Source: an uncultured Candidatus Poseidoniales archaeon (lineage in GTDB: Archaea > Thermoplasmatota > Poseidoniia > Poseidoniales > Poseidoniaceae). From it: DNA of 64,000 nucleotides. Below the pieces are notes generated by a model. It did no database searches and was not told the origin of the DNA. It saw only the letters and a list, made by a program, of their open reading frames with translations. How positions within the stretch are numbered: the first letter of the stretch is position 1; each line of letters opens with the position of its first letter. This document shows positions 12,055-57,250 of this stretch, piece after piece. The position numbers and the translations under genes are program-made. The stretch spans positions 12,592 to 76,591 of the forward strand of contig CAJJCP010000028.1 in NCBI GenBank assembly GCA_905182715.1, in the 5' to 3' direction.

Positions 12055-13254
12055 ATGAAACCAACATTGGCCTCATCTTCAACGGATGTCTTCATCAAGT
12101 ATGGGCCGCCGGCTAAGAACGGGGAGAAGTGTATGAAAGTCTCATGGCGTAAACTCCCTACTGTTTTACTCGAGGATGAAGTCCTTGACAAAGCCTTCTC
12201 CAGATCCAAGAAAGCAGCAGACAGAGTCGATGATTCTGACCGAACCTTTCGGGTCCGTAAACAAATGAATCGAATGGTTCAAACCGCTGCTGATATTATT
12301 TCTACAACCCTTCTCGACACTGTCAACACCTGGCCATCTCTGGACCAATCACCTCAATTTGATGTCTCAATGATCGACGCATGTGTTGGTTGTGATGATT
12401 ATCGCCACCACCTTTCCATGCTTCAATGGGGCGCTCGGCAAGTAACGAGTATCGCCATTCAAAACAGCAAAAAAATTGTTCGAACTGCTAATACCGAACT
12501 TATGCATACTGCTCGCAGAGAAGCATACGGGCGAATCTCTTCGATCTTACGTCGTGTCGGACCTTCGTTGTCTTGGTTAAGTGAAGCGCGTGAAACCCTC
12601 AAGCGTCTGCCGACTGTTGACCACATGCTTCCATGTATCGTCGTGTGTGGTGCTCCGAATGTAGGTAAATCTGCTTTCATTTCCGCTTTGAGTTCTGGAA
12701 AGATGGAAGTCAACCACTATCCCTTCACCACGAAACAAATTCACGTTGGGCATTTTATCCACCGGAGATTGCAATACCAATTGGTCGACACTCCAGGTCT
12801 CTTAGACCGGCCCCTTGAAATGCGTAATGCAATTGAATTACAAGCGATTGCCGCGTTAGAAAACATAGGTTCACTGGTGCTTTTCCTCGTTGACGAGAGT
12901 GAAGCATGTGGCACTCCAATCGAAGAACAGCAACATCTGTTAGAAGATGTTCAAAAACTTCTTCCAGGCACTGATATGATGATTGTTACCTCCAAAGCCG
13001 ACCTTTTGAAACCACTTCCCGAAAATTGGGATGAAGTTGTTGCTGCGGAGAAAGAATGGCGAGAAGAAGGCTCAGGCGGAGAACCTGTCTTGCCTCTCTT
13101 GTATGACTTGAAAGGTCGAGTTACGATGTCTGCAACAGAATTTATTGGCATGGATGCAATGCGATTAGAAATCGTTCGTCGAGTGAATCTTGCTCGACCA
13201 GTGAACCCAATGGCACTGCCTGACGGTTGGTATCGAAGAGACAAAGACGATTGA
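12055..13254 (+). CDS. NOG1-family GTP-binding protein
   Basis: NOG1 N-terminal domain (KLPTVLLEDEVLDKAF) followed by a P-loop GTPase (VCGAPNVGKSAF, DTPGLLDRP, TSKADLL). The start at 12055 (ATG) or 12133 is preferred over the GTG at 11956. Confidence 0.8.
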   Translation: MKPTLASSSTDVFIKYGPPAKNGEKCMKVSWRKLPTVLLEDEVLDKAFSRSKKAADRVDDSDRTFRVRKQMNRMVQTAADIISTTLLDTVNTWPSLDQSPQFDVSMIDACVGCDDYRHHLSMLQWGARQVTSIAIQNSKKIVRTANTELMHTARREAYGRISSILRRVGPSLSWLSEARETLKRLPTVDHMLPCIVVCGAPNVGKSAFISALSSGKMEVNHYPFTTKQIHVGHFIHRRLQYQLVDTPGLLDRPLEMRNAIELQAIAALENIGSLVLFLVDESEACGTPIEEQQHLLEDVQKLLPGTDMMIVTSKADLLKPLPENWDEVVAAEKEWREEGSGGEPVLPLLYDLKGRVTMSATEFIGMDAMRLEIVRRVNLARPVNPMALPDGWYRRDKDD

Positions 13255-34328: not shown

Positions 34329-34415
34329 GCAGGGGTGGCTGAGGTGGTCAAAGGCGCCGGGCTTAAGATCCGGTCCCGTATGGGTTCGTGGGTTCGTATC
34401 CCACTCCCTGCACCA
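34329..34415 (+). tRNA. tRNA-Leu (anticodon UAA), class II with a long variable arm and a genomically encoded CCA
   Basis: The 87-nt sequence folds by hand into a cloverleaf: acceptor stem GCAGGGG/TCCCTGC (7 bp, one G-U); D stem GCT/GGC; anticodon stem CCGGG/TCCGG with loop CTTAAGA (anticodon TAA at 34364-34366); variable arm with a CCC/GGG stem; T arm GTGGG-TTCGTAT-CCCAC; discriminator A followed by CCA. Confidence 0.85.
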
Positions 34416-37551: not shown

Positions 37552-40512
37552 TTGTATGAACATCGCACCATTTCCCTTATGAGGCATCAAACCAGCCCGT
37601 CAACAGTGAATCCAATGCGCACGACTGTTTCTCCCTCCGAGCCGCGCTTCCAATGGCAGATTCTTCAACATCGGAACGCCTTCAAATCGTTCTCCTTAGC
37701 GGCCTTGATGGTGCTCTCAACATTTGCTGCAATCCCGTATATTTCGATGGATGCCCTCGCCGCTTCTGACCAAGATGGAGATGGTTTGACCTATGGTTTG
37801 GAATACCTCATGAATACCGCTCCAAATGACCCTGATTCTGATAACGACGGTTTGCCTGATGGATGGGAATGGCAATACGGCCTCGATCCTCTTTCGAGTA
37901 ACGGCGGAGATGGCGCAGTTGGCGATCCTGATGGCGATGGGATGTCGAATCTACAAGAGTATTCATACTTACAACCCCAAAATTGGGACAGCTCCTCAAC
38001 ACCTGGAGTTCTTGACATGGGTGTTTGGTGGAACGGTACAGTTCCAGTTAACGATTGGAATGAAGAAGGCGCCCTACAATACAACAGACCTGGCTGCGGT
38101 GATAGTGGCTCAGATGGCGTTGGTAGCGTGATTCTTTGTGACGAAGACCCCGTAGGAAATATTTGCACGAATGGTTTCGATGATGATAAAGACGGCCTTG
38201 TTGATTCTGCTGACCCAGATAATGATGGGGATGCAGATTGTTCTTCCAATGATGATGATGGCGATGGTATTGCTGATGAAGACGTGGCCGGTTGGGATAC
38301 TGACGGCGACGGAATGGATGACGGTTGGGAGGCTGCAAACGGCCTCAATGCCACATCCGCTTCCAATGCAGACGGACCGAACGGCGACCCTGACGGTGAT
38401 GGCTTGACCAACCTCATGGAATATGTCAATCCTTCATGGACAACGATGTGTGGTACTTCTCCTTGTTTCCGTAATGGCCCAGATGGTGTTGTTACTGAAA
38501 CTATTTCACCTTGCGACCCTGTTTCTGGAATTGGACCAGGTGGCTGTGCAACCTCTACTGCCGAAGTTGATGGTATTACGAGCACAAACCCCCAACGCGC
38601 AGATACCGATGGTGACGGATTAAACGACTCCTATGAGGCATTGACGCTCTTGACAGATCCAACATCTGCCGATACAGACCGCGATGGAATCGATGACGGC
38701 GTTGAAGTCAACGGCGCATATGGTATCCCTCCTCAACCCAGCAATCCCCGTGACAACAACACCGACGGTGACGCCTTTGATGACGGTGAAGAAGATACCA
38801 ATTTCAACGGTGTTTTAGATGCAGGTGAAACCGACCCTACGCGAATGGAAGATTCAGGCGATGAAGACAATGATGGTATTCAGAATTGGGAAGAAAATCT
38901 TTCATGCACGACATGGGATATTGCCGATACCGATTTTGGTGGAATAAACGATGGTGATGAGCGCAATATTTCACACGGAACAGACCCTTGTGACTCGATC
39001 ATCAATTTTGATACGACCATCGTCACTTGGAATTCAGGTACCAGCCAACTTCAAGTTACAGATGGAACCGGATTCAATCCAAGTGGTGGTGTCGGATGGT
39101 ACAACACTTCTGGTACATGGATTCCTTTTGCTTATGTGAGTACGGTGAATAATGCCATACAAGGGGTATCAACCGCTCCAAATGCTGGTGTGACGCAAGT
39201 CGCAAACCGCAACGGTTCTTTCTGCCATACATCGGCAACAGCCGCAGGAACGATTGGTACAACTCAGCAATATTGTGACGATGATTATTCTGATTCCGAT
39301 GGTGATGGCCTTGCAGATTGGCAAGAGTTACTGGGAACCTTCGGTTGGTTTTCGAACCCAACACTCGCAGATACAGATGCTGATGGTGTGAGTGATTTTG
39401 ATGAAGTCTTTGACAACACCGATCCGAATCAGCCTTGTACGAATTTACTCGATGAGGATTTAGACGGCTTGAACAATTATTTTGAAACGACAACTGGTTG
39501 TGACCTTTCTTGGATTGGAATCCTCAACGGTTCAACAGATGTGTGGATTACTGATGATGTGACGGGTGATACCGATGCCGGAGGCGTTGGAGACCGTGAT
39601 GAATATTTTGATGGTACTAACCCGCAAAACGATCCGACCGATGACTTATTGCCTGCTGATTTTGATGGCGATGGTATTCCTGATGCTGTTGAAAACCAAA
39701 CAGGAACTGATTGGACCAACCCTGATACTGACGGTGGTGGAATGATTGATGGCCTTGAATGCCCTCAGGAATTCTGGATTATCGGTTGTCAAGGTTCGCC
39801 TTTCGACCCGTTTGATCCAACCGATGATTTGATTTCATCTGAAATTGTCTTTTGGGCAAACAACACCACAGGTGTTGTTGACATTGATTCAATACATCGA
39901 TGGCGCCAAACGACCAATGATTTCTACACCGGTACAACCTATGCTCATCTTGAAGCAGTCCATCCATACGAATCGATGGTTCTTCCTTATTCGAATCTGA
40001 CGCATCTTGCAGACCTTACCTTTTCAAACGAAACTCTGGATTGGATGATTACCTATCAGAATCCATTAAATTCGGGTAATCTTCCCGTCCCATATTCACT
40101 TTCGAACTTATCGTTCTTTGTGGACCTTGCAGGGGAATTACAACGTTCCAATGATACACATAACGTCAATGTGATTACTGGGCCGATTCAAGAAATCTTT
40201 GTTCAGCAACCAGAGTACTTTTTCGATTGGGCAACACTTGCATCAACAACAGTGCCAGGTATAAATTCGAGTTATAATTTGGTTTTGCCACCCACCTTCA
40301 GTGATCCATCACACCCTCACTCCTACCTCCTCAACGTTACGACTGCAGTCATTACTGAGGCTGGTGCGACCAATGCATATGACAGTGCTGCGGCTTTGCA
40401 AACCTTCCTGACTGAAGGAAATGCAACGACTGATTTCAAGCGTAACTACGACGGTTCTGGAATCCCTTCTTCCGAAGATTTGAGCGTGACCTTGGTACAA
40501 GCCACTGCGTGA
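37552..40512 (+). CDS. Giant surface protein, segment 1 of 3: signal peptide plus thrombospondin type-3-like Ca-binding repeats. It probably continues by frameshift into 40490..42127.
   Basis: Signal-like FSLAALMVLSTFAAIPYISMDALAAS, then many D-x-D-x-DG-x-x-D repeats (DSDNDGLPDGWE, DPDGDGMSNLQEY, DTDGDGLNDSYE and others). The frame-1 stop at 40510-40512 lies just upstream of the transglutaminase Cys motif encoded in frame 2. Confidence 0.7.
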   Translation: MYEHRTISLMRHQTSPSTVNPMRTTVSPSEPRFQWQILQHRNAFKSFSLAALMVLSTFAAIPYISMDALAASDQDGDGLTYGLEYLMNTAPNDPDSDNDGLPDGWEWQYGLDPLSSNGGDGAVGDPDGDGMSNLQEYSYLQPQNWDSSSTPGVLDMGVWWNGTVPVNDWNEEGALQYNRPGCGDSGSDGVGSVILCDEDPVGNICTNGFDDDKDGLVDSADPDNDGDADCSSNDDDGDGIADEDVAGWDTDGDGMDDGWEAANGLNATSASNADGPNGDPDGDGLTNLMEYVNPSWTTMCGTSPCFRNGPDGVVTETISPCDPVSGIGPGGCATSTAEVDGITSTNPQRADTDGDGLNDSYEALTLLTDPTSADTDRDGIDDGVEVNGAYGIPPQPSNPRDNNTDGDAFDDGEEDTNFNGVLDAGETDPTRMEDSGDEDNDGIQNWEENLSCTTWDIADTDFGGINDGDERNISHGTDPCDSIINFDTTIVTWNSGTSQLQVTDGTGFNPSGGVGWYNTSGTWIPFAYVSTVNNAIQGVSTAPNAGVTQVANRNGSFCHTSATAAGTIGTTQQYCDDDYSDSDGDGLADWQELLGTFGWFSNPTLADTDADGVSDFDEVFDNTDPNQPCTNLLDEDLDGLNNYFETTTGCDLSWIGILNGSTDVWITDDVTGDTDAGGVGDRDEYFDGTNPQNDPTDDLLPADFDGDGIPDAVENQTGTDWTNPDTDGGGMIDGLECPQEFWIIGCQGSPFDPFDPTDDLISSEIVFWANNTTGVVDIDSIHRWRQTTNDFYTGTTYAHLEAVHPYESMVLPYSNLTHLADLTFSNETLDWMITYQNPLNSGNLPVPYSLSNLSFFVDLAGELQRSNDTHNVNVITGPIQEIFVQQPEYFFDWATLASTTVPGINSSYNLVLPPTFSDPSHPHSYLLNVTTAVITEAGATNAYDSAAALQTFLTEGNATTDFKRNYDGSGIPSSEDLSVTLVQATA

Positions 40513-42127
40513 AGGGAGTTGTTCAGAATTCAACACAGCATTCGTCACTATGGCTCGTCTTGCTGGATTGCCTGCCCGAATGGTGACCGGTTTCTCTGGC
40601 GGTATTTGGAACGGTGATGGTTATTCTGTTTACCCAACACATTTGTCCACATGGGGTGAAGTTCGATTGCAACAAAACTCTGCGAGTGGCGACACTGAAC
40701 TTGGATGGATTGCATTCGATGCCTGCCCCGCTGCTGAAGAAGTTGAAATTGTGAATCAAACTATTTCCTCTTTCACCTTTGACCGAGATGGTACGGTCTT
40801 GCTCAACGTGTCCGGGCAATTGCGCTACAGCGAAAACTTGTCCTCCATTTCAGAACATTCACTTACCGGATATCTTGTCCCAATGGCCTTAGAAAATGAA
40901 ATTCCTGGTCAGGCTGCAGTTCCAAACTTTGAGTTTGGTTCAGACATTACGCTTGCTGATGGAACCTTTACTTTCAACGGAACTCCTCCTGAATTGGACG
41001 GGCCGGGTATGTATCGAGTGGTTGTCAAACTCCTTCAATCAGGCTATGTTGCTGAAGCAGGAGTGATTTTTGAAGGATACATTAACGTGACAGAAGATTC
41101 AGTTCTCAGTCACACTGCTCCAAATGCAATCAATGCTCCAATTGCTGGTGCCGGAGCTTTAACAGTCATTGAAGGTAGGCTTTCATTGGAAAATGCCCCT
41201 ACGAATAATATTGCAAACATTGGAGTCAATGATTTGACGCCACCATCGGTCTGGTTGACCTATACATCTTCCGTGACCGGTTTCACAAACTTGAGCAGTT
41301 TCATGAACATTGACGGTACTTGGAGTTTTGATTTGAATCTCGACCCACTTGAAACGAAGACAAATCTTTCTGCAATTCTTGGATTCTCTGGATGGCAAGA
41401 TACGCAAGCAACCGGTATTACTCCAACTCAATTCCATTTGCGTCCTTCGACCACTTCGATTGTAATTGATGTGCGTGATGCGCCAAACTTGACCGCAACT
41501 CTTGAAGGGCCACTTGCCAATAACAGCGTCCTTCTCATCGGCGATAACCTATGGGTAAACGGTACGACTCTCACGACTGGAGCATCACCTGTGCCAATGG
41601 CAGGTAATCTTTCGCTGTCAATTCGAGAAAACGAGACTTCACAGGATTGGACTCAAGTGTTTAACCAAAGTGTTAACGGAGCGTTTAGCATCCAACATTT
41701 ACTTTTGGCAGCAGATGCTCAAGTCATGGCTGGAATTCTCGAAATTCAGATACGCTTCTTCCCCAACGCTATCGAAGCAACCGATGACGCGAATGTGACT
41801 GCAGGTGGCCCTTACCTACTGCGTGGCACGCTCATTTTCGAAGTACAAGCGAGTGCCCAATTAAGGGGGACAGATGCTACTGTCTTAGTCAGTGCAATCG
41901 ATCATCGTGGTGTGAATACAGACCTTCTTCTCTCTGGTAATTTTGATTTCACCTTCAATGGAAACTGGGTCAACACAACCGTCGATCCGCAAACTGAAAC
42001 AATGACTATCAACTGGTTGATTGATTCAACCCTCTTTGCTGGTGATTATATTTCATCACAATTCCATCAATGGTTCCGATTTGTATCAACCATCAATCGG
42101 CATGAGTACGGTTCGTGTTGCTGCTGA
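40490..42127 (+). CDS. Giant surface protein, segment 2 of 3: transglutaminase-like core and following beta-rich region, in the +1 frame relative to segment 1
   Basis: REGSCFRFNTAFVTMARLAGLPARMVTGF (Cys motif G-x-C...FV..AR.AGLPAR.V.G), then ...PTHLSTWGEV (His) and ...IAFDACP (Asp), a complete TGase-like Cys-His-Asp triad. The Cys lies upstream of the ORF finder's ATG at 40550, and there is no start codon between the frame-2 stop (40487-40489) and the Cys. Confidence 0.65.
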   Translation, partial: PWYKPLREGSCSEFNTAFVTMARLAGLPARMVTGFSGGIWNGDGYSVYPTHLSTWGEVRLQQNSASGDTELGWIAFDACPAAEEVEIVNQTISSFTFDRDGTVLLNVSGQLRYSENLSSISEHSLTGYLVPMALENEIPGQAAVPNFEFGSDITLADGTFTFNGTPPELDGPGMYRVVVKLLQSGYVAEAGVIFEGYINVTEDSVLSHTAPNAINAPIAGAGALTVIEGRLSLENAPTNNIANIGVNDLTPPSVWLTYTSSVTGFTNLSSFMNIDGTWSFDLNLDPLETKTNLSAILGFSGWQDTQATGITPTQFHLRPSTTSIVIDVRDAPNLTATLEGPLANNSVLLIGDNLWVNGTTLTTGASPVPMAGNLSLSIRENETSQDWTQVFNQSVNGAFSIQHLLLAADAQVMAGILEIQIRFFPNAIEATDDANVTAGGPYLLRGTLIFEVQASAQLRGTDATVLVSAIDHRGVNTDLLLSGNFDFTFNGNWVNTTVDPQTETMTINWLIDSTLFAGDYISSQFHQWFRFVSTINRHEYGSCCC

Positions 42128-45100
42128 AGTGGCATGGAATTTGAGTCTCAGTCAAGATTGGACTCACTTGGGCAATTCGAGTTATCTGTTTGGAGATATC
42201 TTTGACGCGCAATATACCAATATGAGTGTGCTTGGTGACAACATCACCATGCTTTCAATTATCATGCTGACACCAGATGGTATGCCAATTGACCTTTCAC
42301 AGGGATTGTTAGACAATACGACCGGAAGTTTCCTCCTCAACTTCACCATTCCAATGACGAACCCTTCCGATTCATACGAATTCCTTCTGAATATGGACTT
42401 CGACTCAATGGCACCGGCTGGCGGAGCATATTTCCGATTTGTCGATTCAGCTGTTCCACCCGCCCCACCCTCGCTTCCTTCAACACTTGTTGGTATTGAA
42501 TCTGAATTTGTTGTTAAAACTGAACGGAGTTCATTAATTGTTGAAGCCAACCAAGCCATCGACTTTAATGCGACCATTACTGATGTTGCAGACCAATCCA
42601 ACGTATCCGGTGCCGTAGTCGAATACATCTTGGACTGGGGCAATACCAATGTTTCACTGGGTCTTGATACTTCAGATTCTGAAGGTAATTCAACCCTCCA
42701 ATGGACTGCAACAGGTATTGCACCAGGCTATTACGATGTATTGGTAATTGTTTATGACGATTTGACCGACGCTCTCGGTCAAGGCAATTCACGCCGAACT
42801 GGTAACTCCTCTCTCGTCAATTTGACTGTACAAGTCCCGAGTGTGATTCGTATCGACTCGATTCCAACTGTTACAACAGCTGGATTGAATTTCAACGTTC
42901 TTGGACAAGTTCTCGATGGAGATAACGCTGCACGACCTCTTACAACTCCAGTTGAAATGTCCGCATTTTGGTTAAATAATCCCGATGAACTGTTGGTTGG
43001 GGCTTACCTCACAACTTCGAATGGAACCTTCAACATGAGTATTCCAACTGATACTTCCGGTAACGGCACTGAGCGTGGAAACAAGATTTTAGTTTTGAGT
43101 GTGAATGAAGATTCTTCGCCTTTCTACCTTACTTCCACTTCGCAGAATGGAATGTTGGTCATGGGTGTGAGTCAGTTTAACAATCTCCAGCCGCTTAATC
43201 CAGTCACAGTGAACCGTGGAGATACCGTCAATATTACAGGACGTTTGATGGAATCCTCTAATCTCTTTGCACCATTATCTGGATTTGATGTCGATATTCA
43301 ATTCCATGAAACATGGTTGGCAGGCACCCAAACAGATGGAGAAGGATATGCAAACTTTAGCCATCAGATCCCTATGTCACATCCACTTGGATTGATTATT
43401 GTATCATTGGTATTCAATGGTTCTTCAGACTTGTTGAATACCCAAGTGAACCTTTCAACCATTACCATTCGCTCGACGACCATCATGGTGGTTGACCCTA
43501 TTGCAGCAAATCCCGTTGCAGGTACTTCCTTCAATGTCACTGGTCGCGTAGTCAGTGATAATGGAAGTGGACTTGAACAACGTGATGGAAGCGTTTTGCC
43601 TTCGAACATTTTGTTCAGCCTTAATGGTCTACCAACAGGGTTCTCAGTCACAGGTGGTTCAGTTACCACTGGCGGTATATGGTCAGCCAACATCCTTCTT
43701 GGAGAAGGCTTTGAGGCTGGAAACAATTCTCTCGAGGCATCCTTTATTCCAAACGTCAACTATTACATTGGTTCGACGGTTAACACCTCGTTTGATAGTC
43801 GAGGGTTTACTTCACTGATCTTCGTTCAACCTTCACTTGATGGCATTGGTTTGCCGTCTTTGAATGACCGTACAGAACGTGGCAACGATGTCCAAATTCA
43901 GGTGCTCTTGCGCGACAATACACAGTCCGCAGTAGCAGCGCAACAGGTCATTGTGACGCTTATCGGTACAGATGTAAGTATCATCCTCACGACCTTTGAA
44001 AACGGAACTGGAGTTGGTATACTTACTGTCCCAAGTAACCAAACGATTGGTTTTAATGATCTTGAAGTGACTTTTGCAGGAACTCCAGGAACAACTGGTT
44101 TGATAGGCTCAAATGCCTCTACTCAATTCGTAGTTCTTGCTCAGACCAATTTGGTGATTTCATCCTCGCCTTCGACGCTTGTTGCAGGTGACTCATTCAT
44201 CGTTCAAGGAATATTGCTGGATGACCTCAACCAAACCCTTGCAATCAATGGCAACTCATCACTTGCAATTGTCCACCTTCTTGTCGATGGAATCCCAGTT
44301 TCGAGTATTGAAACAGATGCATTGACTGGAAACTTTTCCATTGGATGGACATTGCCAGAGGATACCTCTGCAGGTTCACACTTGATTGAAGTTCGTTTCC
44401 TTGGTGGACGTGACTGGGTTGACCCTGTAGGAGTCGGTGACCCTGCGAACCCAGATTTCTATCTTCCAAGCAGTGCTCAAATCAATTTTAACGTAAGTGT
44501 CCCTACGAAAATTATTCTTTTGACACCAACCGGCACAGTGGATCGAGAAGCAACAATGACCCTTGAAGGCCGTTTGCTTGATTTGGTAGATGTACCTTTG
44601 ACGAACCTTACTGTTGAAGTCTGGCTTGATGGACAATGGATGACCAATGTGACGACCGATGATACTGGACTCTTTACAGCCGTTTACCCAGTACCTGCCG
44701 ATGCCAAACTTGGTCCGCTTTCGCTTGAAATACGTTTTACTGGTACAACATTCTATCTGCCGAGTAACGCAACTGGAACCTGGACAATATACAGTCCTAC
44801 ACTGGTCACGGTTTCGATGGAAAGCCCTGTTGCAGTCGGTCAGAACACGACCATTACCGGTACTGTTGTCGATAACCAACTGATTGGGGTTTCTGGCCAT
44901 ACAGTTCAACTTGAAGTCGAAGGTCTCATCATAGCGACCATTGTTACAGATTCTGAAGGCCAATTCACCTTTACTTGGAATGTTCCTGATACCTTTAGTT
45001 TCGGCGACCATCTCCTGTTTGCAAATGTCGATGCTCAAGGTTACTACCGCTCGAACACGGGTAATACTTCCTTTTTCTTAGCCCACCGTTCCGATGTGAC

Positions 45101-46547
45101 GCTTATCTTTGATGAAGGCAAAGATGTAACTCGGGGTAATTTCTGGGCACTTTCGGGTCGTTTGTTTGACATCGACACGGTCAACAACGACGGCTTGAGT
45201 GGAATGGAAATCAGCCTTCGCTTAGATGATGTCGAGATTGCAACCTTGGTTACAGAATCGGATGGTAGCTGGTCAACACTTGTTCCTGCGACATCCGATT
45301 TAACTCGTGGTAACCATATTTTCACCATCTTCTTTGAAGGAACTGAAGCCCATCTTGGAACCGAAGCAACCGGTACTGCTACTGTATGGGCCAATGCAAA
45401 AATCACTATTGATGCAACCTCTGCCAATATTGTGGTACGTTCCGATTCCACCTTTGCACCGATTATACTGACTGGTTCAGTCTCTGAAATCGGCGGACTT
45501 GGTGAAGTGTTTGACAATGTCACACTGTATCTTGGTAACGGCTCACAATGTTTGGCTCAAAAAGACGGTGCACGTTGCTTAGAAAACCTCCTCATTGATT
45601 GGTCGAATGGAAACTTCTCTCTCACGACGACTGCACCTTCTTTCCTTAGTGCTGGAGCGCAATACCTGCATCTTGAAACACCTCGACAAGACGTACATTA
45701 CCTCAACTCGGCAAGTGTGAGTCACTTGATATTCGTCAAGATCAATGCGGATATCCTCGTTTCACTCGATGATGTCATCGAAGATAAACAAGAAGACATC
45801 GGTGGAAGCATTCTCATCACTGCACAAGACACTCAACAGGGCGTTGATGGGATTACAGTGACAATCTATCTCTATACCGAGAATGGGACGCAACTTTCCA
45901 CTCCACTGCAACCTCTTACCGATGCAGATGGTGTTGCAGAGTTTGATTTCAATTCAGACCCTCCTTTTGGCGATACAGATTCTTGGGGCGAATTATACTT
46001 GGAGATTCTTATCAATGACCCTCGTCTCTCAGAACAAACACTCTCTGATTTTGCTTTGCAGTCTGGTGAAGAATTTGCTCCTTCGTATGAATACCAAGAA
46101 GCAGCAACTGAAGTTCCTACATGGGTATACATCCTCACACTTCTCATCTTAGGGTTGGCAGGTGCAGGCACCGTACTTTACCGTCGCCGTAAGTCTTCGG
46201 AATTGATGGAAGAAGCCGCTGAAATCTTTGCCTATACTGCTGAGTTGTTGGCTGCGGGTGATTCCATCCGTGAATCGATCTTCACCTGTTATCAGAGTCT
46301 CTGTGCCACTTTCCAAGAACATGGATTCCTACGCCGTGATTTCGAAACAGTTCGTGAATTCGAGATGGCTATTCGTCAAGCAATGCCTCAAATCTCTGAT
46401 GAAGCGTTACTAGCTCTTGACAACATGTTTGAGCAAGCACGTTACAGTCGTGAGGAAATGGGACAGCAGCATCAAGAAGCAGCTCAACTTGCTTTGGAAC
46501 GAATGGGTCAAGAAATCTCAACACTGAAAGCGATTCCTGCACGTTGA
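42021..46547 (+). CDS. Giant surface protein, segment 3 of 3: more than 12 Ig-like/CarboxypepD_reg-like repeats, a TM helix and a cytoplasmic DUF4129-like tail. It is again in the +1 frame relative to segment 2, with the join at about 42060-42115.
   Basis: Repeating units of about 95 aa (for example TGTVVDNQLIGVSGHTVQLEVEGLIIATIVTDSEGQFTFTWNVPDTFSFGDHLLFANVDAQGYYRSNTGNTSFF). TM helix WVYILTLLILGLAGAGTVLY. The tail ...CYQSLCATFQEHGFLRRDFETVREFEMAIRQ...LALDNMFEQARYSREE resembles DUF4129, which typically follows TGase-like membrane proteins. Confidence 0.7.
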   Translation: MIQPSLLVIIFHHNSINGSDLYQPSIGMSTVRVAAEVAWNLSLSQDWTHLGNSSYLFGDIFDAQYTNMSVLGDNITMLSIIMLTPDGMPIDLSQGLLDNTTGSFLLNFTIPMTNPSDSYEFLLNMDFDSMAPAGGAYFRFVDSAVPPAPPSLPSTLVGIESEFVVKTERSSLIVEANQAIDFNATITDVADQSNVSGAVVEYILDWGNTNVSLGLDTSDSEGNSTLQWTATGIAPGYYDVLVIVYDDLTDALGQGNSRRTGNSSLVNLTVQVPSVIRIDSIPTVTTAGLNFNVLGQVLDGDNAARPLTTPVEMSAFWLNNPDELLVGAYLTTSNGTFNMSIPTDTSGNGTERGNKILVLSVNEDSSPFYLTSTSQNGMLVMGVSQFNNLQPLNPVTVNRGDTVNITGRLMESSNLFAPLSGFDVDIQFHETWLAGTQTDGEGYANFSHQIPMSHPLGLIIVSLVFNGSSDLLNTQVNLSTITIRSTTIMVVDPIAANPVAGTSFNVTGRVVSDNGSGLEQRDGSVLPSNILFSLNGLPTGFSVTGGSVTTGGIWSANILLGEGFEAGNNSLEASFIPNVNYYIGSTVNTSFDSRGFTSLIFVQPSLDGIGLPSLNDRTERGNDVQIQVLLRDNTQSAVAAQQVIVTLIGTDVSIILTTFENGTGVGILTVPSNQTIGFNDLEVTFAGTPGTTGLIGSNASTQFVVLAQTNLVISSSPSTLVAGDSFIVQGILLDDLNQTLAINGNSSLAIVHLLVDGIPVSSIETDALTGNFSIGWTLPEDTSAGSHLIEVRFLGGRDWVDPVGVGDPANPDFYLPSSAQINFNVSVPTKIILLTPTGTVDREATMTLEGRLLDLVDVPLTNLTVEVWLDGQWMTNVTTDDTGLFTAVYPVPADAKLGPLSLEIRFTGTTFYLPSNATGTWTIYSPTLVTVSMESPVAVGQNTTITGTVVDNQLIGVSGHTVQLEVEGLIIATIVTDSEGQFTFTWNVPDTFSFGDHLLFANVDAQGYYRSNTGNTSFFLAHRSDVTLIFDEGKDVTRGNFWALSGRLFDIDTVNNDGLSGMEISLRLDDVEIATLVTESDGSWSTLVPATSDLTRGNHIFTIFFEGTEAHLGTEATGTATVWANAKITIDATSANIVVRSDSTFAPIILTGSVSEIGGLGEVFDNVTLYLGNGSQCLAQKDGARCLENLLIDWSNGNFSLTTTAPSFLSAGAQYLHLETPRQDVHYLNSASVSHLIFVKINADILVSLDDVIEDKQEDIGGSILITAQDTQQGVDGITVTIYLYTENGTQLSTPLQPLTDADGVAEFDFNSDPPFGDTDSWGELYLEILINDPRLSEQTLSDFALQSGEEFAPSYEYQEAATEVPTWVYILTLLILGLAGAGTVLYRRRKSSELMEEAAEIFAYTAELLAAGDSIRESIFTCYQSLCATFQEHGFLRRDFETVREFEMAIRQAMPQISDEALLALDNMFEQARYSREEMGQQHQEAAQLALERMGQEISTLKAIPAR

Positions 46548-52086: not shown

Positions 52087-52308
52087 ATGGTTCTTCTCGT
52101 AACGAACCAAAGCGGTAAGGAACGAAAAGTACGTGCCATCGTTGGTATTGTTCTCATTATTCTCGCAGTGAGTCTAAACCTTGCTTCCATGATCACAGTT
52201 GGACTTTTGGCTGCTGCAGGTGCTCTTTTGTTCAATGCCATTTCTGGTAATTGCTTCATTTATCGAGTGCTGGGCTACAGTACATGCCCAATTTCTGATT
52301 CATACTAA
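52087..52308 (+). CDS. DUF2892-family small membrane protein (YgaP C-terminal-like)
   Basis: AIVGIVLIILAVSLNL...VGLLAAAGALLFNAISGNCFIYRVLGYSTCP follows the DUF2892 pattern, including the terminal CP. Confidence 0.5.
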   Translation: MVLLVTNQSGKERKVRAIVGIVLIILAVSLNLASMITVGLLAAAGALLFNAISGNCFIYRVLGYSTCPISDSY

Positions 52309-52766
52309 TCAAGTTCTTTTGGACGTAGTATGTGCTGGCAATGCCATTGCCCATTCTGTTCAATAAGAAGGGCGCATGCAGCAGCCGGCATTCGATGGAA
52401 CTGCTTTGTGATTTCATACAAGACCAATTCCGTTGCAGGGTTGTGGCTGAGAACCAATACAGTTTCACCTTTTTTTGCAGATTCAATACAAGCATGAATC
52501 GTTGCAGTGGTCGGATGATAGAGTTCTTCCATCGTTTGTACAGGAAGTTCTCCAAATTCAGTTTGTAGTAACGCTAGAGTTTCGAGTGTACGTTGTGAAT
52601 CACTGACGAACACTCGGTCGGGAATCCAATCCATCTCCTTCAAAGCCGCAGCGATTCGAGGTGCATCGCTTCTCCCCCTTTTGTTGAGGGGCCTTTGATG
52701 GTCAGTCAGTGCTTTATTCTTCCAACTGCTTTTGGCATGACGCATGATGAGAACTCTGCGAGACAT
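52305..52766 (-). CDS. sixA: Histidine phosphatase SixA-like protein (phosphohistidine phosphatase family)
   Basis: VLIMRHAKSSW...DHQRPLNKRGRSDA...LVLSHNP is the RHG phosphatase motif. The gene sits directly downstream of the giant TSP3 protein gene; the ORF could extend to 52814. Confidence 0.65.
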   Translation of the reverse strand: MSRRVLIMRHAKSSWKNKALTDHQRPLNKRGRSDAPRIAAALKEMDWIPDRVFVSDSQRTLETLALLQTEFGELPVQTMEELYHPTTATIHACIESAKKGETVLVLSHNPATELVLYEITKQFHRMPAAACALLIEQNGQWHCQHILRPKELD

Positions 52767-52814
52767 AACCATGCTTCCTTGGTAAATGGGGTCAATGACT
52801 TTTTTGCACTTCAT

Positions 52815-55800
52815 TTAACCTTGGTATGGAATCCAAGATTCAGATGCAGAATCGTAATACGATAAACTTCCATCAGCAGCTTTTGACCAATTGACGCCAT
52901 TTTCTTCCCATTGTTGAGATTCTTGTTCAATGGCCGGGAGTTCCTTTGTTGTTTCGTATACCATGTTAGAATCAGTTGCCGAATCGGTATAATTCTGCGC
53001 TGCAAATGGTGAATCATCAACAACTGTTTCCTGACCCTTTCGAACAACGAGTAATGCGCCAAGACCACAGAGTGCTAAGAGTGCGAGAATTGCGTAAACA
53101 AGGCCGCCTCCACTGGACTCTGCTTCTTGTTCTGTGCGCGCAGCATCTTCAGGATAGTAATCATAGGTATCTGATACTCCATCTCCATCCGTATCTGTTG
53201 TCTCATTACGGTCCAATGGGAAATCATCTTCAGCATCATTGATGCCGTCTTGGTCAGTATCCATTTGAGTCAAAGCACATCCATCTTCGAACACAATAGA
53301 ACTCGTTGGAGATAATGGGCAATCATCGTCAATATTTTTGACTCCATCTTCATCATCGTCTTTTTGATGTTCTGAGCAACCATCGAGATCGACTCCGTGA
53401 GATTCATCAGTGTCTGGGCACAAATCTTTGTGATTGTTAATGGTGTCATTATCCTCATCAATTTGAGAATCAGCGCAACCTTCAGGATTGACTTGCTCTC
53501 CTGCAGGTGTTGCTGGGCATGTGTCGATGGTATCGTCAATCATGTCGTTATCTGCGTCTTTTTGATTGTCAGCACATCCTGAAGCATCGGTAATGAGGCC
53601 AATTTCGGTATCTGGGCAGTCATCAACATCGTTCATGATGGCATCATCGTCATCATCTCGCTGTGCATCAGAACAACCATTGGAATCCGCTTCATCTTCG
53701 TTCCCAGTCATTGGGCAAAAGTCGTCCATGTCATTGACGCCATCTTCATCTGTATCACGTTCAGCAGATGAACAGCCAACGCCATTGACGAGGGTTGATG
53801 GTGATGTAGTTGGACATTCATCCAGTTGGTCATTGATTCCATCTTCATCGGTGTCACGTTGCATATCTGCACATCCAGCACTGTCAACAGCAGAGCCGAG
53901 TGGCGTCATTGGACAAGCATCGAATGCATCCATGATTCCATCATTATCGCCGTCTTCTTGAGAGCCTGAACATCCAGTAGCGTCGACGTTCTCACCTGCG
54001 GGTGTTGATGGGCAAGCATCGATATCATTGGTGACTCCATCGAGATCATCGTCCTTCTGTTGTTCTGAACATCCCATTGAATCAACGGATTGACCTGCGG
54101 GTGTGTTCAAACAATGGTCAGGAGTATCGCCGTTTGGATTATCACCATAGCTGTCTCCATCTGCATCAAACCATTGTGTTGGTTCAGTAGGGAATCGGTC
54201 AGCCATGTTTCCATTTTGGTTATCTCCGTATCCATCACCATCTGCATCTTCCCATTGAGTGCCGTCCATTGGGAAAGCATCTGGGTCGGTGCCTGCTTGG
54301 TTGTCTCCGTATCCATCACCATCAGTATCTTCCCATTGAGTTGCGTCATTCGGGAATGCATCGCCGTTGTTTCCGGTTGGGTTATCGCCATAGCCATCAC
54401 CATCGGTGTCGGTCCATTGGGTTGAATCAGTAGGGAATTCGTCAGGAGTGGTTCCAGTTGGATTGTCTCCATATCCGTCACCATCCTGGTCAGCCCATTG
54501 AGATGAATCGGTAGGGAAAGCATCACCGTTGTTTCCAGTTGGGTTATCTCCGTATCCATCACCGTCTTGGTCTGCCCATTGGGTTGAATCAGTCGGATAC
54601 TCATCAGCATAATTGCCGGCGGCGTTATCTCCGTAGCCATCTCCATCTTGGTCAGCCCATTGGGTTGAATCGTACGGGAATGCATCAGAGGCATTGCCGG
54701 ATGGGTTGTCTCCGTAGCCGTCCCCATCTTGGTCATCCCATTGGGAACTGTCGAGCGGGAAAGCATCGGGTGAATTGCCATTTGGGTCATCGCCATAGCC
54801 GTCTCCATCCATGTCTGAATATTGGCTGCTGTCGTAAGGGAAATCATCAACCATGTCGTTGTACCCATCACCGTCGGAATCTTTCTGAGAAAGTTCACAA
54901 CCATACATGTCGACTGATGCACCAGCAGTTGTGTTGGCACATAGGTCATATTCATTGGCAACTCCATCATTATCATCATCAATGGTCAGTGAGAAGCAAT
55001 CACTGTCGCCAATTAATTGAACACTTATACTCGAGTAGAGATTGACGACTGCGCAGTAAATACCACTCATGTTTGGAGTCGTATAGGTGAATGTTGGCAT
55101 GCTCATGTTTTGTGCTGTTGCAGTAAAGGTACTGAGGGTCGAAGTAGCCAGTGATGCACCTGAACTATCAGTGACTAATATTTGGTATTTGTAATCGTCT
55201 CCTGTAACAAGGTCGCTGCCTTTGACCATGACATCATTGGTGGCTGAAGTTGAACTTGTTGAATATGAATCAATCAACATGGTCGGCAATTGTGGAATGA
55301 ACTCATCATCATGAACGCCAATAAACCCTTCATTGGAAGTCAGATTAACTTGAGTGTTATTGTATGAAAGGAAAGTAACAAACCCGTGATCATTCATGGT
55401 TGTTGGTCCATTCCATGTGATTTGCCACGATTCTGAGGTGGCCGTATCGGTCGTAAACGTGACGTTCATTTGGTCAATCATTGAGGCTGTGAGTGCCATG
55501 TCGACATCCATCGAAGTCGTGTAATTGTTATCAAATTCGACCATATCATAGACAAGCCACCATACTGTATAATCGGTGTATGTACTGAGGTTTGTTGCAT
55601 ATATTTCACCTGTTGTTGAAGAGGTTACGTAAGCTTCGAGCATTTCGATGTAGATGCAATCTCCATCTTCATCGAGCATTGCTCCAGTAGCGTCTTTCAA
55701 CACTGATACAGAACAGTATTCAGATTCTTGCATTACAGGGCTTGCCGATGTTGCATTGGCCATCATGGTCGTTGCTGTAGCACTGAAGTTACCATTGCTC

Positions 55801-57011
55801 GGCATGGACCAACTTTCAGTGTCATTCAAGAAAAACTGAACATTTGAATGGTTGTAGAGGTATGTATCTCCAATGGTTAATCCCGTGAATTCAAGCATTG
55901 AATCGGTTGTTCCATTCATGGTCACAGTGACGGACTGGAAACTTTGCCCTCCGCCTGGTAAATTTGTAGTTAATGAGATGTCATAATTATTCGTAAGAAC
56001 ACCTCCCCCAAATGATGCGTAATGATATACTTTGAAGTATGCTGTGAAATTTGATAGGGCTGTATATGCTGCTGCTTCATTATCTGAAGAAGAAGACATT
56101 GAAACAAAACTATTGAAAGAAAGTAAACTACCAGTAGCATCTTCTAAAGTTGCATCAATATCGCCACCTGCGTGCAAGAATGTTAAATTGAAGTAGTATG
56201 TGACCCCACTCATCATTTGAATTTCGTAGTAATCATCATTGGCAACTCCAGCAGAATTTATTTCGACACTTAATCCAGTACAAGCAACCGGCAATATGGA
56301 GGCTAAAGTTGCAGTAGCAGGTGTATCATTGGGTTCTAAGATATCCGGGGCATTACCGTTTCCAGTACATGGGCTTGGTATTGCGCTCCCATTACCACCC
56401 GTTCCGTTGCCACCGGTTCCGTTGCCAGTCGAGGTGCTGAATGTCCAGATGTCAAGGGTATAGAATCCATACCCGTCATAACGGTATATTTGTACATAAA
56501 CAGTCCCTCCATGTGGAGTTGCAGAATTATTTGTGCTTACTGATTCGGGGTTAAACATATATGATTCATCGATAAAAGTTCCATTCGCATCATAGATTGC
56601 AAGATCAAAATCGTTTGTATATGTGGAACCGTTTGCAGAAGTATATGTTGTGTTAAAGGAAAGTTGCAGCGCTAATCCTTCATTGGCTGCAAGGTTGACT
56701 GCGACCCAATCTTCATCATCATTGACATCGAGTTCGCCGAAGTCCGAAAAATACACAGGTGCAAACCCTGAAAGGTTTGCAGCAAAGGATGAATTGACTC
56801 CTGACATGTTGTCTGGTAAATCCATGGATAATCCAAAATCGTTTTGATTTGCACCGACTGCAGATACGCTTGGTGCAGTCAATGTCAGCGTCGTTATGAC
56901 AAGCATCAAGGCCAAGAGAATGGAACTCGATTTGTTAGGATTCGTAGAACTCAAGGAAGAGGACATAAACTTGGGACTGAGTGATAGTTTAAGAGACTCT
57001 CTACTCGGCAT
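52815..57011 (-). CDS. Giant cell-surface protein (1398 aa) with a signal peptide, about 10 tandem 33-aa Ca-binding repeats, Cys-containing bacterial TSP3/OmpA-type repeats, a C-terminal TM anchor and a cytoplasmic tail
   Basis: N-terminal ILLALMLVITTLTLTAPSVSA. Repeats FP.DSTQW.DQDGDGYGDNP.GN..DA occur about 10 times. Units of the form D-DGDGV-D--D-CP-TP-G--VD--GC (for example DLDGVTNDIDACPSTPAGENVDATGCS) repeat about 8 times. TM helix LVYAILALLALCGLGALLVV. Confidence 0.8.
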   Translation of the reverse strand: MPSRESLKLSLSPKFMSSSLSSTNPNKSSSILLALMLVITTLTLTAPSVSAVGANQNDFGLSMDLPDNMSGVNSSFAANLSGFAPVYFSDFGELDVNDDEDWVAVNLAANEGLALQLSFNTTYTSANGSTYTNDFDLAIYDANGTFIDESYMFNPESVSTNNSATPHGGTVYVQIYRYDGYGFYTLDIWTFSTSTGNGTGGNGTGGNGSAIPSPCTGNGNAPDILEPNDTPATATLASILPVACTGLSVEINSAGVANDDYYEIQMMSGVTYYFNLTFLHAGGDIDATLEDATGSLLSFNSFVSMSSSSDNEAAAYTALSNFTAYFKVYHYASFGGGVLTNNYDISLTTNLPGGGQSFQSVTVTMNGTTDSMLEFTGLTIGDTYLYNHSNVQFFLNDTESWSMPSNGNFSATATTMMANATSASPVMQESEYCSVSVLKDATGAMLDEDGDCIYIEMLEAYVTSSTTGEIYATNLSTYTDYTVWWLVYDMVEFDNNYTTSMDVDMALTASMIDQMNVTFTTDTATSESWQITWNGPTTMNDHGFVTFLSYNNTQVNLTSNEGFIGVHDDEFIPQLPTMLIDSYSTSSTSATNDVMVKGSDLVTGDDYKYQILVTDSSGASLATSTLSTFTATAQNMSMPTFTYTTPNMSGIYCAVVNLYSSISVQLIGDSDCFSLTIDDDNDGVANEYDLCANTTAGASVDMYGCELSQKDSDGDGYNDMVDDFPYDSSQYSDMDGDGYGDDPNGNSPDAFPLDSSQWDDQDGDGYGDNPSGNASDAFPYDSTQWADQDGDGYGDNAAGNYADEYPTDSTQWADQDGDGYGDNPTGNNGDAFPTDSSQWADQDGDGYGDNPTGTTPDEFPTDSTQWTDTDGDGYGDNPTGNNGDAFPNDATQWEDTDGDGYGDNQAGTDPDAFPMDGTQWEDADGDGYGDNQNGNMADRFPTEPTQWFDADGDSYGDNPNGDTPDHCLNTPAGQSVDSMGCSEQQKDDDLDGVTNDIDACPSTPAGENVDATGCSGSQEDGDNDGIMDAFDACPMTPLGSAVDSAGCADMQRDTDEDGINDQLDECPTTSPSTLVNGVGCSSAERDTDEDGVNDMDDFCPMTGNEDEADSNGCSDAQRDDDDDAIMNDVDDCPDTEIGLITDASGCADNQKDADNDMIDDTIDTCPATPAGEQVNPEGCADSQIDEDNDTINNHKDLCPDTDESHGVDLDGCSEHQKDDDEDGVKNIDDDCPLSPTSSIVFEDGCALTQMDTDQDGINDAEDDFPLDRNETTDTDGDGVSDTYDYYPEDAARTEQEAESSGGGLVYAILALLALCGLGALLVVRKGQETVVDDSPFAAQNYTDSATDSNMVYETTKELPAIEQESQQWEENGVNWSKAADGSLSYYDSASESWIPYQG
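54121..54890 (-). repeat. Tandem coding repeats of roughly 99 bp (about 8-10 units) inside the giant TSP3 protein gene
   Basis: DNA-level periodicity of units such as GTTATCTCCGTATCCATCACCATC...CCCATTGAGT...GGGAA. Sibling-frame ORFs (54107..54982 minus, 54090..54425 plus, 54539..55045 plus) are artefacts of this repeat. Confidence 0.7.
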
Positions 57012-57250
57012 TAAATTGCTGTTGGAGCAACATGGCCCTCTTTTTTGTCTTCTGGTTTACGAACCCGTGACCAAACTCCGCCCATTAATTCATCATGGTG
57101 ATTGCCACAGTAATGGAATCGGCGGTATGCCTCTCGAAATGAGTAGGCTTTTTTTCCAGTTGCTACAAGGAAACCTTCTGGTGAGAGGCGGGATACGATG
57201 GTTCCTTCTTCCCCACAACCAAGGAAATCGCATACTGCTGAGCCGCCCAT
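57011..57250 (-). CDS. Small Cys/His-rich hypothetical protein (putative zinc-binding)
   Basis: 79 aa containing CDFLGCGEEG...HYCGNHHD. Its stop overlaps the giant gene's start codon by 1 nt, suggesting translational coupling. Confidence 0.3.
   Translation of the reverse strand: MGGSAVCDFLGCGEEGTIVSRLSPEGFLVATGKKAYSFREAYRRFHYCGNHHDELMGGVWSRVRKPEDKKEGHVAPTAI

Follow-up and report, generated by a model that had tools for sequence, protein, structure and literature searches.

What does a giant, repeat-bearing gene do in an uncultured marine archaeon, and does its tandem repeat mark a hypervariable locus? The question is raised by a stretch of 64,000 nucleotides (the window: positions 12,592 to 76,591 of contig CAJJCP010000028.1, GenBank assembly GCA_905182715.1) from an uncultured Candidatus (Ca.) Poseidoniales archaeon of the Poseidoniaceae. 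An original prediction, made from the DNA letters, had described a giant surface-protein gene in this stretch, and the uninterrupted open reading frame (ORF) of 1398 amino acids (aa) on which it was based is confirmed by the ORF list, at 52815-57011 on the minus strand. We propose that the encoded giant protein is probably a Ca2+-dependent, membrane-anchored surface adhesin with a stalk of fixed length and an exchangeable tip resembling collagen-binding domains (CBDs) and PPC domains. Marine Group II (MGII) archaea, which include the Ca. Poseidoniaceae, are among the most abundant archaea of the surface ocean, and none has been cultured; gene lists are all that documents their attachment to particles and algae, and this locus provides a concrete, conserved candidate. 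'Thrombospondin genes' have been reported to be widespread in Poseidoniales and were read as adhesion factors (Rinke et al. 2019, PMC6461757). The giant protein belongs with these adhesins; what is new here is the resolved architecture, the invariant repeat number, the mosaic tip, the probable promoter and an uncurated 27-aa repeat.

The gene forms a single-copy, syntenic family in Ca. Poseidoniaceae. We found 55 full-length or nearly full-length orthologues, which are 46-89% identical and mostly 1346-1395 aa long; those with names are from Ca. Poseidoniaceae, and one (P0029) is called 'thrombospondin type 3 repeat-containing protein [Candidatus Poseidoniaceae archaeon]' at NCBI. All orthologues have in common the signal peptide, a junction of VSA followed by VGxNQND, the transmembrane (TM) helix and a terminal tail motif. 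With residues numbered on the longest ORF and structures modelled with AlphaFold2 (AF2; confidence given as the predicted local distance difference test, pLDDT), the gene is laid out in the window as follows.

52815-56966, minus strand: coding sequence of the surface protein, including the stop codon; the ATG at 56966 is the probable start (1383 aa), and the longest ORF reaches 57011 (1398 aa).
56856-56966, minus strand: signal peptide, aa 16-52, with predicted cleavage after VSA; hydrophobic segment at aa 28-50, conserved mature N-terminus VGxNQND.
56412-56855, minus strand: tip domain D1, aa 53-200, a PPC/CBD-like beta-sandwich according to AF2, profile and Foldseek.
55962-56411, minus strand: tip domain D2, aa 201-350, PPC/CBD-like, with an EPND motif and a conserved disulfide pair, C215-C244.
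54942-55961, minus strand: three beta-sandwich (Ig/FN3/MG-like) domains, D3-D5, aa 351-690, AF2 pLDDT mostly 80-94.
54843-54941, minus strand: first Cys-bracketed 33-aa TSP3-type unit, aa 691-723, placed by regular expression and coordinates.
54114-54842, minus strand: nine tandem 27-aa (81-bp) Cys-free units, [FY]PxDx[TS]QWxDxDGDGYGDNxxGNxxDx, aa 724-966, defined by motif spacing and the 81-bp repeat period.
53223-54113, minus strand: nine tandem 33-aa (99-bp) Cys-bracketed TSP3 units, CPxTPxGxxVDxxGCSxxQxDxDxDGVxDxxDx, aa 967-1263.
53142-53222, minus strand: terminal Cys-free acidic unit or units, FPLDRNETTDTDGDGVSDTYDYYPED, aa 1264-1290, seen in the sequence, with Dx[DN]xDG at aa 1273.
53040-53108, minus strand: single TM helix, aa 1302-1324, then RK (positive-inside), from hydropathy and the AF2 helix; kept in all orthologues.
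52818-53039, minus strand: cytoplasmic tail, aa 1325-1398 (74 aa), a variable linker and a conserved end of about 36 aa, from the orthologue alignment.

The stalk is built from two types of repeat with different periods. The original prediction held that about ten near-identical DGDGYGDN units of 33 aa lie in a 99-bp tandem array. The array exists, but its period is 27 aa (81 bp) and it has nine canonical copies: the D-x-D-G-D-G-Y-G-D motif recurs at aa 733, 760 and so on to 949 with a spacing of exactly 27 residues, and Tandem Repeats Finder detects a period of 81 bp (also 162 and 243; 72-75% matches) at 54139-54810 and none of 99. The period of 33 aa, or 99 bp, is that of the Cys-bracketed array, where the Cys pairs 967/981, 1000/1014 and so on to 1231/1245 delimit nine units of exactly 33 aa. 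These were correctly recognized as TSP3/OmpA-type repeats, although they number ten (nine in tandem and one upstream) rather than about eight. The motif string in the earlier note was itself 27 characters long. Nor are the 27-aa units near-identical: compared in pairs, they agree at 59-81% of positions in DNA (mean 68%) and at 56-89% in protein, and the longest exact DNA word common to two units is 22 bp.

Tandem DNA repeats of this kind had been expected to be a hotspot for copy-number variation, and a contingency surface protein, whose repeats expand and contract so that its length changes between cells or strains, would be one reading of the locus. To survey the family, one genome per GTDB species was scanned with the 79-aa protein encoded just upstream of the giant gene; this gave 305 loci, 80 of which were fetched and analysed. 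They carry the names Poseidoniales, Poseidoniaceae, Poseidonia or broader archaeal names of metagenome-assembled genomes (Methanobacteriota, Thermoplasmatota, Euryarchaeota), and CM001443, the original MG-II assembly, is among them. Nine 27-aa and ten 33-aa units are present in each of the 63 complete genes, which come from different GTDB species, and the same counts recur in essentially all of 51 full-length database orthologues down to 49% identity; the few counts of eight reflect degenerate motifs, with the 27-aa spacing preserved. The units also keep their places. On average, unit i is most like unit i of an orthologue (68-80% identity on the diagonal versus 56-78% off it), and in close relatives 7-9 of the nine 27-aa units pair with their positional partner; the arrays are thus old, stable and not homogenized. 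Where length does vary, it varies elsewhere, since the long variants (1534-1835 aa) carry their extra length on the N-terminal side, either ahead of D1-D2 or within it, whereas the stalk is never lengthened. A repeat region collapsed in assembly does not account for the constancy either, because about 60 assemblies made independently give the same result and the units have diverged too far to collapse. Very distant members with the same architecture and tail have 11 instead of nine 27-aa units, which implies gain or loss of units over long times, and tandem repeats are undeniably present; even so, with units this divergent, fixed in number and retained in position, we regard the contingency reading as extremely improbable. 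To take any tandem repeat for a hypervariable locus is tempting, and here it misleads; none of the findings on this locus will greatly surprise specialists. At two species-level loci (L043, 7425-7715, and L071, 7431-8351), the giant gene is seemingly split into short ORFs, and yet its tail can be recognized downstream; pseudogenes could explain this, as could errors of assembly or frameshift errors. Two ORFs in other frames within the repeats of the window, at 54107-54982 (minus strand, 291 aa) and 54539-55045 (plus strand, 168 aa), are most simply by-products of the periodic sequence, with no sign of coding.

If the stalk is constant, what might it do? Aspartate makes up 23% of it, and aa 691-1290 contain 16 exact Dx[DN]xDG motifs, against 1.1 +/- 1.1 expected (maximum 6) in 2000 composition-preserving shuffles; the whole protein has 17, and the stalk about 22 if the Gly is relaxed. 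Across 320 27-aa units from orthologues, Q7, D10, D12, D14, G17, D18 and D26 are invariant and G15 is conserved in 98%, so that D10-x-D12-x-D14-G15 spells Dx[DN]xDG and is accompanied by two further acidic residues, D18 and D26, conserved in 100%. In 40 of the 33-aa units, C1, G14, C15, D21, D23, D25 and D32 are invariant, that is, an acidic DxDxDGxxDxxD loop and its flanking Cys. Dx[DN]xDG is the calcium-binding loop reportedly treated by Rigden and colleagues in 2011. At least 12 families, thrombospondin among them, use it to bind Ca2+ almost identically (PMC3123361), and thrombospondin type 3 repeats are described as a calcium 'wire' with a calcium-dependent fold (Kvansakul et al. 2004, as cited in PMC3123361). 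By analogy, the fold of the giant protein's stalk would also depend on calcium.

The two repeat types differ in how well they are known. As had been predicted, the Cys-bracketed units are recognized by the Pfam family TSP_3 (PF02412): aa 960-1300 alone score 78.7 bits (E=2.4e-22) over nine stretches. The whole protein scores only 21.2 bits, below the gathering score of 25, probably owing to the composition-bias correction, and a precomputed PF02412 match is present in many orthologues. In the PDB, the 33-aa region finds the OmpA-family TSP3 protein 5wtl (E=1.5e-5); it also has partial NCBIfam matches to TSP3-type anchor and cohesion proteins, and is modelled by AF2 with a pLDDT of 80-90. The 27-aa array (aa 700-965), by contrast, has no Pfam family even at E<=10 and no NCBIfam match, such matches being restricted to aa 983-1135; a sequence search of the PDB gave no match, the nearest being a loop of the SusG alpha-amylase, 'FADSDGDGYGD', at a non-significant E=0.76, and AF2 leaves the array unmodelled (pLDDT 35-44, that is, <45). 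Nonetheless the unit is common: among 1.84 billion proteins, its profile matches 3347 cluster representatives at E<=1e-3 and 374 at E<=1e-30, including other Poseidoniales, a Marinimicrobia protein and Shewanella 'thrombospondin type 3 repeat-containing' proteins. Because four of six scanned top matches lack any Pfam match, the 27-aa unit is common yet uncurated, an acidic repeat that current domain libraries miss. Common descent of the 27-aa and 33-aa units finds no support in hhalign, which aligns only the 10-column DxDxDGxxD core, with 6% probability.

These comparisons place the stalk close to, and also apart from, known repeat proteins. It is like bacterial and archaeal TSP3 repeat proteins in that its 33-aa Cys-bracketed units match TSP_3 and 5wtl; it is unlike them in that its TSP3 units form a fixed stalk of ten joined to Cys-free 27-aa repeats, and in that the protein ends in a TM helix and a cytoplasmic domain rather than in an OmpA peptidoglycan-binding domain or a lipid anchor. 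Serial Dx[DN]xDG loops with interspersed disulfides are shared with the type 3 repeats of eukaryotic thrombospondin and COMP, whereas the C-terminal lectin-like domain, the EGF domain and the coiled coil of those proteins are missing from this archaeal one. Thrombospondin type 3 motifs also differ in length from strictly periodic units of 27 and 33 aa.

At the other end of the stalk lies a head rich in beta-sandwiches. The AF2 model of aa 40-690, built with 36 sequences, is all-beta (mean pLDDT 78), and Foldseek on this N-terminal half finds FN3/MG/Ig arrays, an adhesin extender and the tandem CBDs of ColG. For D3-D5, the matches are FN3 arrays, complement MG domains and the extender of a large adhesion protein, at E of about 1e-9 to 1e-11; they include 6xi3, the 'extending region of large adhesion protein'. 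For D1, the profile (about aa 75-196) has the ColG tandem CBD 5iku as its best PDB match (E=0.0057), and the N-terminal model retrieves 5iku at E=1.1e-8 with a TM-score of 0.38 normalized to the target; for D2 (about aa 222-350), 3jqw, a collagen-binding domain of ColH, ranks first in the PDB with a full-length match (E=0.0016). As candidate PPC/CBD domains, D1 and D2 resemble the CBDs of ColG and ColH (5iku, 3jqw) as tandem beta-sandwiches of about 120-150 aa with an EPND-type N-terminal motif; unlike ColG and ColH, the giant protein bears no protease domain, and the sequence match is borderline. N-glycosylation sequons are twofold enriched in aa 53-690, with 25 observed versus about 12 expected.

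The tip, unlike the stalk, is a mosaic. With the stalk repeat arrays taken as the gene backbone, D2 falls into three cassette types among 64 genes, and these cut across the clusters defined by the stalk (Spearman 0.21 for D2 versus stalk identity). The window and locus L009 are 91-95% identical in the stalk (93% over the repeat arrays) and only 47-49% in D2, with the flanking genes of L009 96-99% identical in protein; conversely, the window and the distant loci L001 and L059 share 57-72% in the stalk and 75-80% in D2. There are gene pairs whose stalks are 93-94% identical although their D2 domains share only 41-47%. At the DNA level, identity between the window and L009 falls to 51-59% at about 56400-56100 and is back to 87% at 55950, and tracts of low identity are also found in D1 and in the 3' end of the gene together with the SixA-like gene that follows it. 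Such a pattern suggests that recombination has exchanged cassettes at the exposed far end of the protein, and a tip exchanged between lineages is what would be expected of a ligand-binding or phage-exposed surface. The result is a division of labour between a constant, apparently calcium-loaded stalk and a tip exchanged between lineages. Base composition shows no anomaly pointing to a recent foreign origin.

We propose the following arrangement for the giant protein as an adhesin. The signal peptide would export the N-terminal part, the C-terminal TM helix would hold this type I protein in the membrane, and the ectodomain is probably glycosylated. Next to the membrane, the acidic stalk of about 600 aa (ten TSP3 units, nine Cys-free 27-aa units and the terminal acidic unit) would take up Ca2+ from seawater in its loops and become a stiff, extended spacer of fixed length. 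It would bear the three Ig/FN3-like beta-sandwiches and, at the far end, the two collagenase-CBD/PPC-like domains, D1-D2, which may form a tip that binds ligands, be they particles, polymers or other cells. It is this tip that is plastic in evolution, through replacement of D2 cassettes, divergence of D1 and the extra N-terminal domains of the long variants, on a stalk whose number of units stays constant. Within the cell, the cytoplasmic beta-hairpin domain may tie the protein to an intracellular partner. An analogous plan, with an anchor, a Ca2+-stiffened repetitive extender and a distal ligand module, is found in the giant Ca2+-dependent adhesins of marine bacteria, to which the fold match with 6xi3 also points. 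However, the extender of the archaeal protein would consist of non-globular Dx[DN]xDG/TSP3 loops and not of Ig-like repeats, and the protein is much smaller (about 1380 aa) and uses a signal peptide and a TM helix instead of type I secretion.

Several observations weigh against the adhesin reading. D1 and D2 have no Pfam match, PPC (PF04151) included, and their assignment as PPC/CBD is borderline by sequence (E of about 1e-3). The 'rigid rod' is an analogy with TSP3 structures, as AF2 cannot model the 27-aa array. At 10 of the 80 loci the giant gene has left no trace and the glutamate dehydrogenase gene comes next, so the giant gene either is dispensable in some family members or is sited elsewhere in those ten genomes. 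A conserved cytoplasmic domain is superfluous for a plain adhesin. Finally, we infer the ligand, the Ca2+ binding and the expression of the protein alike.

Some of the same evidence bears on a different role, that of the main envelope glycoprotein of the surface-layer (S-layer) type, or of an envelope spacer of fixed height, in Poseidoniaceae. The TM helix would then be the anchor, the Ca2+-loaded stalk would set the width of a pseudo-periplasm, and the beta-sandwich head would form the canopy. Euryarchaeal S-layer glycoproteins have a C-terminal TM anchor and a sequon-rich head, both of which are seen here, and a strictly conserved number of stalk units in a single-copy, syntenic gene of nearly constant length (1317-1348 mature residues in most species) with a well-conserved consensus promoter box of its own would suit such a protein. 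Even the lineage-swapped tip domains would fit phage-driven diversification of an envelope protein. Yet we consider this role unlikely: the gene is missing from the locus in those ten cases, the tip domains resemble substrate-binding CBD/PPC modules and not known lattice-forming domains, further large surface proteins are encoded in the same window, and literature searches found nothing specific on an MGII S-layer or on the giant protein.

The adhesin reading also has to accommodate the part of the protein inside the cell. The TM anchor that had been predicted is present as one hydrophobic segment, aa 1302-1324, followed by RK, and beyond it the tail ends in the motif QQWEENGVxWSKxxDGxLSYYDxxxxxWxxY (window 52818-52925), which occurs in all orthologues. 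This stretch of about 36 aa is among the best-conserved parts of the protein, with W, E, E, G, W, L, Y and W invariant across orthologues. AF2 predicts its last 35 or so residues as four short beta-strands, apparently one four-stranded sheet (pLDDT 83-85). A hidden Markov model of the tail found the motif solely at the C-terminus of proteins that share the architecture of the giant protein, including distant family members with different tips. Such conservation would be expected if the protein were an adhesion or sensing receptor that relays the binding of an outside ligand or of Ca2+ through the TM helix to the cytoplasmic beta-hairpin, in the manner of cadherins or integrins, and this and the adhesin reading are not mutually exclusive. 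However, in the 80 loci the gene has no partner, kinase or signalling gene as a constant neighbour, the SixA-like phosphatase next door is lineage-restricted, the tail has neither a Pfam match nor a significant Foldseek match, and it could merely serve sorting or anchoring; a receptor is, in our view, quite unlikely. Identification of the tail as a WW domain or as a hairpin repeat of the cell-wall-binding type was tried and rejected, with no Pfam match even at E<=10 and no structural match. Foldseek on the AF2 model of the C-terminal half returned nothing significant (all E>0.9), mostly stretches of about 25-40 residues in larger beta-rich proteins, which are probably driven by the tail. The window holds no further copies of the tail or the tip, and only the ORF at 37552-40512 shares the acidic repeats.

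A bolder combination can be formulated from these observations. The giant protein would be an archaeal analogue of cadherin/integrin-type receptors, with a fixed, Ca2+-rigid ectodomain, exchangeable tips and an unclassified cytoplasmic domain, and its 27-aa unit would stand for a calcium-repeat fold that is widespread in archaea and marine bacteria (3347 or more clusters at 50% identity) and has no curated model or solved structure. We hold this combination to be unlikely.

Upstream and downstream of the giant gene, three further features on the same strand bear on how it is transcribed.

56987-56994, minus strand: TATA-like box TCTTAAAC, spanning -28 to -21 relative to the start codon (ATG, 56966), from an alignment of 68 loci.
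57011-57250, minus strand: 79-aa gene for a small Cys/His protein, the last of an acyl-CoA carboxylase cluster, supported by conservation and synteny.
52305-52766, minus strand: SixA-like histidine phosphatase (His_Phos_1), with the probable start at M17, 48 nt after the stop of the giant gene.

The true start of the giant gene is likely to be the ATG at 56966. It encodes M16 of the longest ORF, the point where the N-termini of the orthologues align, and from there the protein reads MSSSLSSTNPNK... In the 68 loci aligned at this ATG, T-[G/C]-A-T-A-A-A-C stands at -28 to -21, each of its positions being kept in 62-82% of the loci, and the flanking sequence is variable. Both in position and in sequence, the box matches the TATA boxes of archaeal leaderless or short-leader mRNAs, and we read it as a promoter of this kind. 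Since the orthologue N-termini and this conserved box together place the start at 56966, which is 44 nt downstream of the stop of the 79-aa ORF, the one-base overlap that had been described between the two reading frames is an artefact of taking the longest ORF. Because the box sits between the 79-aa ORF and the ATG, the giant gene probably has its own promoter and is transcribed independently of the upstream gene.

The neighbourhood is consistent with this. Gene order is kept from a B12-binding/MeaB gene on the opposite strand through a carboxyltransferase gene, a 64-aa ORF, the BCCP gene and the 79-aa ORF to the giant gene; after it comes a variable slot and then the glutamate dehydrogenase gene on the opposite strand, again in conserved order. 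The 79-aa gene follows the BCCP gene in every fetched locus with enough upstream flank, including the ten that lack the giant gene (L035, L061, L063, L064, L069, L073, L074, L077, L082, which is the 'MGIIa-K1' bin, and L084), and the giant gene in turn follows the 79-aa gene in about 70 of the 80. What had been suggested for this small upstream ORF holds in part: it is a real gene for a 79-aa protein, with Cys and His as described, but it seems not to overlap the giant gene and an operon of the two is not supported, as it stays beside the carboxylase genes where the giant gene is missing and the latter has its own TATA-like box. The 79-aa protein is better conserved than any neighbour, being 80-89% identical where the giant protein is 53-75% identical. 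It has 293 homologues, with 72-100% identity across those listed, and all the named ones are from Poseidoniales, Thermoplasmatota or Euryarchaeota. Its residues C7, C12, C48 and H52 never vary and position 51 holds either Cys or His, which suggests that it is probably a small zinc-binding protein; Pfam and NCBIfam gave no match, and a zinc-ribbon likeness to the archaeal RNase P protein Rpp21 falls short of significance (E=0.2).

On the downstream side, a SixA-like phosphatase had been proposed as a further member of an operon. The gene belongs to His_Phos_1 (48.5 bits; cut-off 21.7), but it falls short of the SixA equivalog level, with 43.8 bits against the 74.5 required for TIGR00249. Its longest ORF spans 52305-52814, and the start is most likely M17 (52766), because relatives begin M-x-RR-V-L-L-MRHA. 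A conserved operon with the giant gene is not supported, as the SixA-like gene is absent from most of the 80 loci and occurs only in the clade of the window and in one neighbouring clade, with 38-61% identity. Between it and the glutamate dehydrogenase gene, a YgaP-like TM protein (PF11127, E=5.9e-12) is encoded at 52087-52308 on the plus strand; it is present only in L005-L009. In a comparison with L005, the closest genome, the 5' part and middle of the giant gene show 95-100% DNA identity and its 3' end 80-84%; the SixA-like gene has 49-69% in DNA and 59% in protein, and identity is 89-99% again from 52350 downstream. The segment 52350-53550 (minus strand), with the SixA-like gene inside it, has the appearance of a recombination tract. 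Just after the stop of the giant gene, L007 (11422-11440), L008 and L009 have short inverted repeats, not alike in sequence between the loci (TGTTGA...TCAACA and TACCGT...ACGGTA, for instance), that may be a terminator or a stabilizing hairpin; the spacer in the window is shorter (48 nt) and seemingly without that hairpin.

Elsewhere in the window, three ORFs of 986, 525 and 1508 aa lie in three frames at 37552-46547 on the plus strand, with TSP3_bac, Transglut_core and CarboxypepD_reg/DUF4129 domains, and occupy the syntenic place of a single gene of 2973 aa in L004. The transglutaminase motif (GSCSEF...ARLAGLPARMVTGF) begins right after the stops near 40512, upstream of the first ATG of the middle ORF. 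Because this catalytic motif precedes that ATG and L004 has one gene here, the arrangement suggests a frameshift, through either a sequencing error or a pseudogene. The only Rfam match in the window is a tRNA gene at 34329-34412 on the plus strand (RF00005, 47.6 bits).

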